64,000 nt of DNA from Saccostrea echinata. Taxonomy: Eukaryota. The notes below the pieces were generated by a model. That model had not been told where the DNA came from and searched no databases. It saw only the letters and a program-made list of their open reading frames with translations. A program made the position numbers and the translations under genes. Location: assembly GCF_033153115.1 (NCBI RefSeq), contig NW_026889751.1, forward strand, positions 20,956,001 to 21,020,000, in the 5' to 3' direction. Below, piece by piece: positions 11,938-16,255 of this stretch (positions within the stretch are counted from its first letter, which is position 1; each line of letters begins with the position of its first letter).

Positions 11938-12549
11938 TCACTTTGATGGATAAACAAAACCATTACCAGAGCAAAATTGCCTAAGAGCAGCCTGCATTGT
12001 TGACAAAAAGACATAATTACCTAAGGGAGATAAGTGAACTCCATCATTAAGAAAGAGTTTACTTTGAACAATACTGATGTCAGGGTACTTAATTGAAGCA
12101 CCACCTGACTTTAAAACAAAGCTAGCAATAGAACTATTAATCCTAGATCTTGATTTCTCTGCAGCAACATTTGAAATTGAATGACGCCAATATACCCTGG
12201 GCAAAATATGTGACCAGACAATGCATGTCAAAGGCATAACCAAACTCAACTTGTTGATAACAGTTTTCATAAATTTTTGTTGTCTTCGTAATGGGTTATT
12301 AAGTTTGGCAATGTCACTACCACCTACATGGATAACAAGAAACCTCGGATGTGGCTTTGTAGAGGACAGGTCAGAAATGACCTCAGAGAATTTGGCAAAA
12401 CTCAACCCTGGTATTCCCTTCCATAACATTTTTACCCCTGGTAAAGAAAGGTCTGTGCCAAATTCCGGAGAACTCAAAGAAAATTGTTCTGCTCTTTTAA
12501 TAAGGGATGATCCCACAATCCAGATTGAATCTACAAGATTTATGAACAA
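11938..12549 (-). CDS. SGNH/GDSL-type hydrolase (esterase) ORF of the retrotransposon
   Basis: Block I WIVGSSL, block II KGIPG, block III VIHVGGSD, block V DGVHL. No ATG before block I; probable splice acceptor at 12531. Confidence 0.8.
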   Translation of the reverse strand: MFINLVDSIWIVGSSLIKRAEQFSLSSPEFGTDLSLPGVKMLWKGIPGLSFAKFSEVISDLSSTKPHPRFLVIHVGGSDIAKLNNPLRRQQKFMKTVINKLSLVMPLTCIVWSHILPRVYWRHSISNVAAEKSRSRINSSIASFVLKSGGASIKYPDISIVQSKLFLNDGVHLSPLGNYVFLSTMQAALRQFCSGNGFVYPSK

Positions 12550-12688
12550 TACATAAGCAATGATTACAATCTACATAATTATGCACTTGAAAACAGCAAT
12601 CAAATGAATCCAACTCCAATTATAATTTTGATATCAGGTTAACAACAATATGACAATGATGTAACCATCATAATAGCATTATTTGCAT

Positions 12689-13639
12689 CTAAAATGTAAT
12701 CAACTTAGGTCTGAGATAATGCTTATATGCATCTGACACCCATCTTCCCTTTCTTTGAATTTCTTGTTCAGATATGCCCGACAAATACATGTGAGTAGCA
12801 GCTCCTATTCTAAAAGAGTGCGTTTTGAAAGTTTTTGTTTCAATACCTAAAAATCTCAATGCTTTGTGTAATACACTTGAAAACTGGTATGCCGATAATG
12901 GTGTACCATTGATATGACAAAATAGAGGGCCATCCACCAGAGATCTGAATTGCAAGAAAGTTTCTAATAAATTAAAACACACTGTTGACTCTACTGATTT
13001 GCTGATAGTAATGACTAAACCTTTTCCACTCTGATCTGTTTTAGAAAAACGCAACTTTAATTTGATATTTTCATTACTTAACTGTAAATCTGAAAGGTGA
13101 AGTACATTTCTTCGACTCTTATTTGATGCTACTGCCATTTCACTTATTCTAAGAAGACCAAAAAATGCAGTTGCAAATGTAGACCCAAATAAGAAGTGCT
13201 CATATTTTGAATGTGTAACCATAGGTAAAACATCCAAAATTTTTAGTAAAAGCTGATATGTTACAGGACTTCTGATGTCCTTTGTAGGCTTAGATCTTCT
13301 TAAACCTGTTAACATTTTTTGCACAATGAAAGATTTGACTGGATTGTCCAATCCGTGCACTTGCAAACTGTGACTCAGGGCTGATAAATATACATTAGCT
13401 GTAGAATGAGAAAGATTTTTTGATGCTAGAAAAGCCACAAAATTGATTACATGATCTACTGGAGGTGGCCAAGATAGAGGCAAATTAAATTGTAATCTGA
13501 AGTCATTAAATACAACCATGGCTTTGTCATATGCAATTTTTGTGTTGTTGGAGAGGCTAGCTTCTATTAAATGATTGACATGCCCTTCAAAAGGTTCCAA
13601 AATTGAATAGGTACTTGATAAGGATGGCAATCTGCCCAT
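12689..13639 (-). CDS. Tyrosine recombinase (phage-integrase family) of the retrotransposon
   Basis: Catalytic residues LLRISE, KTDQ, HSFRIGAAT, GRW.S.AY..Y. First ATG at 13639; overlaps the RT ORF end. Confidence 0.93.
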   Translation of the reverse strand: MGRLPSLSSTYSILEPFEGHVNHLIEASLSNNTKIAYDKAMVVFNDFRLQFNLPLSWPPPVDHVINFVAFLASKNLSHSTANVYLSALSHSLQVHGLDNPVKSFIVQKMLTGLRRSKPTKDIRSPVTYQLLLKILDVLPMVTHSKYEHFLFGSTFATAFFGLLRISEMAVASNKSRRNVLHLSDLQLSNENIKLKLRFSKTDQSGKGLVITISKSVESTVCFNLLETFLQFRSLVDGPLFCHINGTPLSAYQFSSVLHKALRFLGIETKTFKTHSFRIGAATHMYLSGISEQEIQRKGRWVSDAYKHYLRPKLITF

Positions 13640-15222
13640 GGTGCTAACTGCCTGAATCTGTTCCACTGCAATCGAGAAATTGAATCTGCTATCTCATTTA
13701 TACAACCTCTTACATGAACTGCTTTAAACGGAATATTAAACTTCAAAGAAAGCAATACTAATTCTCTCATCAAAATCATTACCCTTGTATTCTTAGATGT
13801 TTTCCGATTCAAGATTTCAACCAAAGCTATATTGTCAGCATGCAATATTAATTTCTTATTTTGTAATTTGTCTGACCACAAGTAAAATCCTAAAACTATA
13901 GGAACAAACTCTAAAAAAGTGATGTCTTTTCTTATATCAACATTCCACTCCTGTGGCCAACAGAGATAAGACCAGGAAGTACCAAAAACCACACCACAAC
14001 CCACTGAACCTGAGCTATCTGAATAAAATTGTACATTTTTGTCAGATTCCCATTCCAATTCTGGAAATTTTGTTGTTCCATTAAATTCATCAAGAAATGT
14101 TAACCACATTTGGAGGTCACTATGTATTTCTTTGGAAAGTCGTACAAAGTGATGTGGCTTAGAAACACCAGACATTAAACCATATAAGCGGCATGTAAAT
14201 GCTCTACCTGCTGGCAAGGCCTTTGTAATAAAAGCTAATGAGCCAGCTAAAGACTGAAGCTGCCTTAATGTAATCTTAGATTTCCCTTGAATTTCAAGTA
14301 TTTCTTTTTGTAAAGATTCTACTTTATCCTTTGGAATGAAAATTGACTGATTAACTGAGTCTATACCTAAACCTAAGAACACTATATATGTTGTTGGACC
14401 TTCAGTTTTTTCCTCTGAAAGAGGAACACCTAATCTTTTACAGATATTTTGAAAAGAATCCATCATATATTTACAATTGTTTGTTCCATGAGCTCCAGCA
14501 AATAAAAAATCATCTAAGTAATGAACAATATTTTTCAAGTTGGTGTTATACTCTACCACCCATTGTAAAAAACTGGAAAATTTTTCAAACAAAGCACACG
14601 ATATGGCACAACCCATAGGTAAACATTTGTCTACATAATATTTATCAAGAAACTTAAAACCAAGCAGACTAAAATCTTCGGGTCTAATTGGTAACAACCT
14701 AAATGCATTTGAAATATCCATTTTCCTTAATTGTGCATTTGTCCCCAGTTTTTGTACCATGCTAACAGCTTGATCAAAAGATGAATAATTAACTGAACAA
14801 ATTTCAGGATTAATGAATTCGTTAATACTCTTTCCATGTGGAGCAGATAAATTGGTGATTAACCTCCAACCACCCTGTTTTTTAGGTAAAACTCCTATTG
14901 GGCTGCAATGAAAATTTTGAAATGGGGGGGCATCAAATGGACCCATTATGCGACCTAGGTCAATTTCTTTGTTCAGTTTAGCTAACAATTCATCTTTATG
15001 CTCTAATGCTGAAACCATATTTTTACAAGATACTGGATCCCGCGGACCCTCATAGTTCAATGAGAAACCAAATGTAAACCCATGTAAAAGTTGATTTGCC
15101 TCAGTTTTTTCTGGATAATCTTGTAACAAAATGTTTAAAGTGGTTACATTGATCGGTGTAAAACCTAGATCCCAAAGGCATGGATCTTTATTGCCGAAAT
15201 GGCCTTGAAAATCTTGATTGGG
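13567..15222 (-). CDS. Reverse transcriptase + RNase H (pol) of the retrotransposon
   Basis: WRLITNLS, KMDISNAFR, LPMG, YLDD, FLG; RNase H SDSSG, ITFLE, ADN, N.IADSISR. The frame is open from 15222; first ATG is at 15018. Confidence 0.93.
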   Translation of the reverse strand, partial: PNQDFQGHFGNKDPCLWDLGFTPINVTTLNILLQDYPEKTEANQLLHGFTFGFSLNYEGPRDPVSCKNMVSALEHKDELLAKLNKEIDLGRIMGPFDAPPFQNFHCSPIGVLPKKQGGWRLITNLSAPHGKSINEFINPEICSVNYSSFDQAVSMVQKLGTNAQLRKMDISNAFRLLPIRPEDFSLLGFKFLDKYYVDKCLPMGCAISCALFEKFSSFLQWVVEYNTNLKNIVHYLDDFLFAGAHGTNNCKYMMDSFQNICKRLGVPLSEEKTEGPTTYIVFLGLGIDSVNQSIFIPKDKVESLQKEILEIQGKSKITLRQLQSLAGSLAFITKALPAGRAFTCRLYGLMSGVSKPHHFVRLSKEIHSDLQMWLTFLDEFNGTTKFPELEWESDKNVQFYSDSSGSVGCGVVFGTSWSYLCWPQEWNVDIRKDITFLEFVPIVLGFYLWSDKLQNKKLILHADNIALVEILNRKTSKNTRVMILMRELVLLSLKFNIPFKAVHVRGCINEIADSISRLQWNRFRQLAPWADCHPYQVPIQFWNLLKGMSII

Positions 15223-16255
15223 TCACATTGGGATTGATGTTTTGACGACCGACATTGTGAGTAGCCCCTTTTGATGTACTATGGCTGGTTTGATTACTGT
15301 AACAGTTGATGGAGGGATGGTTTTTGCCGCACTTAAGACAAGAGTGTGAAAATCTACAATCTTTTTTAAGACATGAACCCTTCAAGTTGAAATCATAACA
15401 ACGCTTGTGCTGGTGCAAATTAGAAGTAGGCTTGCGTTCAGCGACTGCTGCCTGACCCATGTAAATCAACCATAATTCTGCATCAATGTTTTCCCAACTG
15501 ATCATACTATTTTTTGAGCGCCTAAGTCTAAACTGAATGTCATAATCCCTCCACCCTAGTGTAGTAGACCGAGAAGCCCCTAGCCTTATTGAACTGATAT
15601 ACTTTATTATGCCCTGAATGTGCTGTGGAAACTTTTTTAAGTAGATGGCAGCATAAATCAAAAAGGAATCAGTCCATTCCGAAATGTTTGCAATTTTTCT
15701 ATCCTTAGATTTATTTTTTATTTTAATTTCTCCATCTTCAAACACAAGCAGTTGCTGAATTTCAGCAGCTGGATCTAAATGCAATAACCTAGCAAGATCT
15801 ATATACTCATTATTCCAAATTTTTTCCTGTGTTGTCAATGGTATATTAGCCCCAAGATCTGATGTAATACTGACTAGGGGATTAACATGCATACCTGGCT
15901 GATACACAACATTTTTTGTTGCTGTAGTCATAGAGGTGTCTTGAAGCAGAGGCTGCACATCTGGAATATTTTGAGATGCGGCTACACTAAAGGTCTGTTG
16001 CAGCTGAGGCTGGTCACCTGTGATGTTCACTGGCAGTGTGGCATTCACGGGTCTGACCTCGGATGTGTCTTGTAGGCCACAGGTAGGAGCATAAATCACT
16101 TGGCTACCACTTCCCGCATGCTGTATTTGTGAGGACTCTTGTGTTGGTTGCACCGGGCGCGCCGAGGGGCCGGAAGCACGTGCAGGGCGTCTGGCATAAG
16201 GCGATTTTGTCTTGGATCTCCTTGTAGATCCCACTCTCAACAATCCAGTGCTCAT
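15188..16255 (-). CDS. Gag-like ORF1 of the retrotransposon (355 aa from ATG 16255)
   Basis: KIWNNEYIDL and W..YD..FR motifs typical of DIRS/Ngaro gag; C-terminal zinc fingers CYDFN..GSC....CRFSHSCLKCGKNHPSINC. Confidence 0.85.
   Translation of the reverse strand: MSTGLLRVGSTRRSKTKSPYARRPARASGPSARPVQPTQESSQIQHAGSGSQVIYAPTCGLQDTSEVRPVNATLPVNITGDQPQLQQTFSVAASQNIPDVQPLLQDTSMTTATKNVVYQPGMHVNPLVSITSDLGANIPLTTQEKIWNNEYIDLARLLHLDPAAEIQQLLVFEDGEIKIKNKSKDRKIANISEWTDSFLIYAAIYLKKFPQHIQGIIKYISSIRLGASRSTTLGWRDYDIQFRLRRSKNSMISWENIDAELWLIYMGQAAVAERKPTSNLHQHKRCYDFNLKGSCLKKDCRFSHSCLKCGKNHPSINCYSNQTSHSTSKGATHNVGRQNINPNVTQSRFSRPFRQ

Follow-up and report, generated by a model that had tools for sequence, protein, structure and literature searches.

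Using a 64,000-nt stretch of the Saccostrea echinata genome (hereafter the window; NCBI RefSeq assembly GCF_033153115.1, contig NW_026889751.1, positions 20,956,001 to 21,020,000), we identified what its sequence marks as a young Ngaro tyrosine-recombinase (YR) retrotransposon with split direct repeats, gag, pol and YR frames, and a fourth frame for an SGNH hydrolase. We propose, with a probability of about 0.9, that a 120-codon Gag exon is spliced to this hydrolase frame, which has no start of its own, giving a predicted 317-aa esterase with a basic tail, and that the same leader likely feeds pol and YR. Unspliced RNA would supply full-length Gag and the genome; the donor at 15895, which we observe joined to the acceptor at 12530, would allow translation of the esterase fusion; the same phase-1 leader would reach the pol and YR frames through alternative acceptors (predicted for YR, and for pol in the window's family); and the Arg/Lys-rich tail would bring the esterase to the element's ribonucleoprotein (RNP) or to membranes.

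The splice from gag to the SGNH frame

The initial annotation of this DNA had proposed that the hydrolase frame is reached by splicing, from either of two donors in gag to an acceptor-like AG just ahead of catalytic block I (GSS), the first in-frame ATG (12429) being already past that block. Coordinates and phases were verified: in the acceptor, TCTTGTAG/ATTCAATC (a slash marks the splice boundary), the AG is at 12532-12531 and the first exon base, 12530, is in phase 1, and the donors CAG/GTGACC (last exon base 16018) and CAG/GTATGC (15895) both lie in phase 1 when counted from the gag start codon (ATG, 16255). Joining the 361 coding nt up to 15895 to the 593 nt from 12530 gives 318 codons, i.e., 317 aa. 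The placement of the ATG is true of the window copy and is a near-private variant, with 17 of the 19 other loci carrying GTG, 1 GAG and 1 ATG at this position, and with all four sequencing runs that we examined reading GTG. The SGNH open reading frame (ORF) of the family is therefore even less startable than first thought.

The element is present in 5 of the 6 listed sequencing runs, four of which (X1 to X4) we examined as contigs. The joint between 12530 and 15895, with CT..AC ends and 3364 nt skipped, is found in contigs of 2 of these 4 runs, belonging to two studies, X1 (study P1, joint depth 30.4) and X2 (study P2, joint depth 24.1), and all contigs aligned to the element in these two runs are at least 95% alike. 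The GT-AG, phase-1 splice from 15895 to 12530 is confirmed as real for the family. The proposal of a subgenomic splice that skips pol and YR was exact at these two positions, which recur in RefSeq and Logan proteins and in an intron-less genomic copy. The second donor has nothing to support it apart from its correct phase: we observed no joint at 16018 in the four runs, the site has decayed in the diverged copies L036-L038 and L042, and it was rejected. A 249-nt joint in X4 (15553-15803), with non-canonical ends and a depth of 5.4, was not counted. Two X2 contigs leave the element at donor 15895 into unrelated sequence (loose ends at 15891 and 15894), which suggests that host exons or other elements may be further splice partners of this donor.

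Several points weigh against our proposal at this step. The joint is missing from X3 and X4, and depth in X4 is flat (34.2) across 11762-16516. The runs are contigs with no strand and no reads, the short side of the joint is 28 letters long, and the kind of nucleic acid was guessed to be RNA. The contigs show sister-copy alleles at 12429 and 12317, and the evidence thus concerns the family and not the window insertion. Contig depth, a poor measure, is nevertheless higher over the esterase exon than over the intron in the other three runs (65.7 and 38.1 in X1, 79.1 and 25.7 in X2, and 103.9 and 46.8 in X3).

The joint might alternatively come from DNA, i.e., from an intron-less, non-autonomous lineage in the sequenced animals, in which case splicing would lie in the past and would not necessarily be today's route. 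No run is on record as RNA, intron-less copies do exist, and the sequenced animals may differ from the assembly. However, no intron-less copy above 86% identity occurs among 33 matches in the genome, the joint depth in X1 and X2 is near the intron depth and would need many intron-less copies, the runs amount to 40-75 Mb of contigs compared with a 923-Mb genome, and all 19 families retain the splice signals, and we regard a DNA origin as very improbable.

Conservation of the splice and intron-less copies

Our search of the genome returned 597 or more candidate SGNH matches, and the elements that bear the esterase fall into at least 19 families, several with near-identical repeats. From the 150 scored esterase matches among these candidates we chose 40 that were stop-free, near full-length and spread over identity groups, and dropped 3 without the block I motif, which left 38 loci, including the window, in 19 families at <65% identity. 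In 19 of 19 families a phase-1 YAG is present 17-26 nt ahead of the block I Gly, compared with 0 of 19 and 2 of 19 for the other two phases (all YAGs within 45 nt, by phase: 2/25/4), more than chance would give, so that the AG marked out initially is conserved throughout. RG/GTR donors are in phase 1 in 16 of 17 cases ahead of the Gag core and in 9 of 17 within it (Fisher p 0.017), a weaker signal than that of the acceptor, counted in 11 of the 12 families with a usable gag frame; the donor score uses approximate textbook frequencies and served for ranking only. The families are related by descent and are not independent trials, and their flanking sequences are visibly unalike.

The same survey bears on whether the esterase has an internal promoter and start of its own, at an ATG or a non-AUG codon. 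An in-frame Met upstream of block I is present in 4 of 19 families, which counts against our proposal, and the database proteins P0006 and P0007 begin at such a Met. By contrast, 15 of 19 families have no Met ahead of block I and a stop 11-25 codons ahead of it, and the observed joint uses the gag donor. We consider an internal start extremely improbable.

Gene models contain the predicted product. RefSeq XP_061183690.1 (317 aa, 99% identical) reads ..NVVYQP/DSIWIVGSS, and the same junction occurs in S. cucullata and C. gigas models and in two Logan-derived 309-aa proteins. The suggestion of a fusion between the N-terminal part of Gag (Gag-N) and SGNH is therefore borne out by the observed joint and by exact 317-aa models, the protein being a predicted one. 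More distant models with a basic N terminus and an SGNH domain are found in Mytilus, Gigantopelta and Pogona, and in Pogona the Gag P0174 and the fusion P0145 have a common N terminus and diverge after EKRG/ERRG. The same predicted fusion is thus present in gene models of oyster, mussel, snail and lizard, and RefSeq models named 'uncharacterized' already contain its junction implicitly. On the other side, gene models by themselves are unreliable, several (P0016, P0047, P0057, P0062, P0063 and P0083) fuse YR or reverse transcriptase (RT) to SGNH, and the 99%-identical RefSeq models may share source material with the window and are not independent. The lizard fusion-cluster proteins P0155, P0185 and P0186 carry the UniRef label '1-alkyl-2-acetylglycerophosphocholine esterase', and are likely transposon products annotated as host enzymes.

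Genomic copies that lack introns were searched for in 7 families (in four of them only selected shortened matches were fetched), and we found Gag-N/SGNH copies in 2 families, Gag-N/Pol copies in 1 and Gag-N/YR copies in 0, the last result weighing against the YR part of our proposal. One copy (L039/L158) reaches 15895 and continues directly in the esterase exon, the only such case among 33 gag-region matches; with an identity of 74-86% and indels next to the joint, it could not have given rise to contigs ≥95% alike. A second exact Gag-N/SGNH copy, L151, belongs to a family whose esterase is 42% identical, and its donor had been listed beforehand and was then found as an exact match end. Copies in 4 of the 7 families (L035/L159, which is 96% identical; L132; L058; and L152-L154) lack precisely the GT-AG intron of the 5′ untranslated region (UTR). 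Since otherwise long copies without this intron exist, RNA spliced there would still be copied back; its joint (16259..16481) is not seen in contigs of the four runs. In our view, reverse transcription of spliced RNA best accounts for exact GT-AG losses in DNA. Other deletions (the second joint of L038, L040, L041, L119, L136, L137, L143, and the second joints of L157-L159) do not coincide with GT-AG ends, and we read them as DNA-level or template-switch events.

The frame reached by this splice encodes a putative esterase. All 18 aligned families, which are 31-46% identical to the window copy, retain Ser, Gly, Asp and His (S8, G42, D163 and H166), and the block III Asn is present in 17 of 18 (the window copy has Ser in block III, and 19 of 19 sister loci have Asn). 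The match to Pfam Lipase_GDSL scores 19.6 bits, below the cut-off of 23.6; the structure model has an SGNH alpha/beta fold (pLDDT 95.7), with SGNH/GDSL proteins as the top Foldseek matches (TM ~0.6-0.7), and the best PDB match to the esterase family profile is ZfL2-1 ORF1p (4c1b, E 1.6e-9). The esterase has a computed isoelectric point (pI) of 10.1, and the first 35 aa of the Gag leader contain 9 K/R and no D/E. By analogy with ZfL2-1 ORF1p, we suggest, tentatively, that through the fusion a predicted lipid esterase would be tethered to membranes or to the RNP of the element.

It is also conceivable that the spliced RNA is real and mainly regulatory, diverting transcripts from the genomic RNA pool, with the esterase fusion as a passenger. 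The fusion is known here as a predicted protein only, and S. cucullata model P0029 (XP_062583503.1) joins the same Gag-N exon to a homologue of a 17-codon spacer exon between repeats A2 and B2. However, the invariant catalytic residues and the frame kept in phase point to selection on the protein, and a mainly regulatory role appears improbable. Joints to the spacer exon (11062..11139) are not seen in contigs of the four runs, and contig depth over the A2-B2 spacer is high in X3 and X4.

Entry into the pol and YR frames

Our analysis indicates that pol is probably also expressed by splicing, and that YR probably is too, to judge from sequence conservation. In all 10 elements compared, pol lies in the +1 frame relative to gag, and in the window copy it has no Met ahead of the conserved TP motif. 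In the L089 family (34% identity), a donor, CGG/GTGAGT, was predicted and then found used in two genomic copies, L116 and L117, where it is joined to TTGCAG/G in phase with pol, so that Gag-N/RT frames stay open over 270 and 325 aa. These two copies are 21/765 apart and L117 is 2/765 from full-length copies, and they therefore arose separately. The acceptor used in them lies ~100 nt upstream of a TAG/G five bases ahead of the pol TP motif, which we rejected as a general pol acceptor, since conserved LWxLG residues lie upstream of it and it is not present in all families, but which we keep as a candidate for the window's family.

For YR we examined the 17 of 19 families that have the motif ADSISRxQW. 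The Gln codon of this motif, which would hold a phase-1 AG, is CAG in 16 families, AAG in 1 and CAA in 0, compared with 57:96 at other Gln codons, and the Arg ahead of it is CGN in 17 of 17, compared with 16 of 55 when four further conserved Arg columns are counted. Past the AG, the YR frame stays open over 36 codons in 17 of 17 families; it is closed at most 12 codons upstream in 15 of 17, and lacks a Met in 15 of 17. Gag-N/Pol copies in a sister family, together with a conserved AG at a mostly start-less YR frame, therefore make it likely that one Gag leader feeds three acceptors (esterase, pol and YR), the YR branch resting on conservation.

A different account would have the esterase alone spliced, with pol expressed by a +1 frameshift from gag, YR by a frameshift or an internal start, and the Gag-N/Pol copies as by-products of cryptic splicing. 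This account draws on the uniform +1 phase of pol, and on a set of results that all weigh against a shared leader: contigs of the four runs contain no pol or YR joints, the phase bias of candidate pol acceptors is weak (18/47/33), and the window YR has a Met of its own at 13639. In addition, 36 Pol proteins with long N termini gave no clean match to a known Gag-N exon, and a different choice of copy changes the YR Gln codons to CAG 15 and CAA 1, so that the AG is present in 16-17 of 17 families. Against frameshifting, two independent copies share one in-frame pol acceptor, 15 of 17 families have no YR Met, and 4 of 17 have a YR frame that closes one codon ahead of the conserved AG, which leaves no room there for an upstream frameshift. 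We consider expression by frameshift possible but rather unlikely.

A shared leader also changes how the esterase compares with an envelope gene. The likeness to retroviral env expression that was suggested initially holds for the RNA layout, i.e., a spliced subgenomic RNA that skips pol, and not for the product, which is predicted to be a globular SGNH fold behind a Gag tail, and in which we found no start of its own, signal peptide or membrane anchor (judged without a dedicated predictor of either of the latter two). Since the sister-family donor is also joined to pol, and since 120 Gag residues are kept, a shared leader exon fits better than an env-like gene. We slightly favor the broader view that the whole Ngaro programme would run by alternative splicing from bivalves to lizards, with all enzymes Arg/Lys-tagged for particle loading, no frameshift, and spliced RNAs copied back.

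The element in the window and its relation to known systems

Four open frames on the minus strand, gag, pol, YR and SGNH, lie within 16731-10727, with gag, RT-RNase H and YR overlapping, and the repeats are in the order A1 .. B1 A2 B2 (Table 1).

Table 1. Features of the retrotransposon, in window coordinates
Feature	Position	Strand	Remarks
A1 split direct repeat	16519..16731	-	213 nt, 100% identical to A2
5′ UTR intron, GTATTG..TTGCAAG	16259..16481	-	Stops 3 nt short of gag ATG; missing exactly in L035/L159
Gag-N leader coding exon	15895..16255	-	120 codons + 1 nt
Full gag ORF, unspliced RNA	15188..16255	-	355 aa; conserved core, Cys/His-rich end
Second donor-like site, CAG/GTGACC	16013..16018	-	No sign of use
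GT-AG intron of subgenomic RNA (Gag core, pol, YR)	12531..15894	-	3364 nt; joint in X1 and X2; intron-less copy L039/L158
pol (RT-RNase H) ORF	13567..15222	-	RVT_1 E 1.2e-16; +1 to gag
Candidate pol acceptors, phase-1 AGs	before 15212, 15203, 15185, 15164	-	Sequence only
Predicted YR acceptor, ..TCTCGATTGCAG/TGG	13665..13700	-	Inside RNase H codons ADSISRLQ/W; conservation only
YR ORF	12689..13693	-	Phage_integrase E 5.4e-9
SGNH frame	11938..12570	-	Lipase_GDSL E 0.0011, below cut-off
SGNH hydrolase exon	11938..12530	-	197 aa; Ser8, Gly42, Asp163, His166 present
B1 repeat	11452..11751	-	300 nt, 100% identical to B2
A2 repeat	11244..11456	-	213 nt, pairs with A1
Short phase-1 exon, A2-B2 spacer	11062..11139 (with acceptor region 11185-11062)	-	After strong pyrimidine tract; possible further acceptor
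B2 repeat	10727..11026	-	300 nt, pairs with B1

The gag frame has no Pfam match, and was identified by its position and by homology of its core to Pogona P0174 (E 2e-31). There is no methyltransferase, RVT_1 being the only Pfam match of pol, and the SGNH ORF follows YR, as in hydrolase-bearing members; the Ngaro assignment rests on the repeats and the hydrolase, and PAT and VIPER have the same repeat layout. The family is young, with 14 of 33 esterase-region matches full length at ≥97% identity. Exact database look-ups of Gag, Pol and YR from the window copy gave no match. A short ATAAT core is common to the left flank (16731-16738), the B1/A2 joint (11456-11452) and the right end (10727), which fits recombinase-type integration without target duplication. 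The insertion is flanked by two similar long AMP-binding (acyl-CoA synthetase-like) frames on the minus strand, 7930-9684 and 23129-24880, and lies ~1 kb upstream of the first of these, and a 646-aa B-box/coiled-coil/NHL (TRIM-like) frame is present at 46369-48309 on the same strand.

The Ngaro hydrolase has long been catalogued as an ORF with no proven function. It now has a defined, predicted 317-aa product that is open to expression and assay, and whose catalytic serine is missed when ORFs are annotated in the standard way. In mollusc and reptile annotations, many SGNH genes labelled 'uncharacterized' are likely to be transposon transcripts. If the shared-leader reading is true, it would explain how YR retrotransposons can express ORFs that overlap and mostly have no start, and would represent convergence with the design of L2/CR1 ORF1p, a basic tail plus an esterase. 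Our search of the open literature, with Repbase and the principal reviews from Poulter and co-workers outside its range and an earlier mention there possible, found no description of a Gag-SGNH splice.

Retroviruses generally produce env from a spliced subgenomic mRNA, with env having its own start. In foamy virus, pol and env are described as expressed from spliced subgenomic mRNAs, with the pol acceptor located, according to a study cited there, in gag and with Pol made free of Gag (PMC7828637). Our element resembles foamy virus and other retroviruses in that downstream ORFs would be reached from a 5′ donor via alternative acceptors; unlike foamy Pol or env, its product is predicted to carry a coding Gag leader of 120 residues, with an esterase and not an envelope protein as the cargo. 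The bdelloid Vesta retrotransposons carry a GDSL ORF3, an SGNH esterase, and like our element have this esterase at the env position; Vesta elements, however, are long terminal repeat (LTR)/integrase elements that represent an independent capture, with no Gag fusion described in the sections available (PMC5408684).

The ORF1p of ZfL2-1, an L2/CR1 element, contains an arginine-rich motif and a basic SGNH domain and binds acidic phospholipids, and in this pairing of a basic motif with a basic SGNH domain it is like our predicted fusion (pI 10.8 there and 10.1 here). In the parts of that report consulted, ZfL2-1 ORF1 is one unspliced LINE ORF that includes a coiled coil, whereas in our element the basic tail comes from Gag via splicing (PMC3905857). 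The closest layout is that of the hydrolase-bearing, Ngaro-like Xenopus elements DIRS-53_XT and DIRS-54_XT, which match the window element in their A1..B1-A2-B2 repeats and their four ORFs, gag, RT/RNase H, YR and a fourth SGNH ORF (PMC9210276). The main text of that report draws these as four overlapping ORFs, describes the hydrolase as without proven function, and never uses 'splic' or 'intron' (PMC9210276), whereas in the window element's family we find the esterase on a spliced exon, with its fusion to Gag-N predicted.

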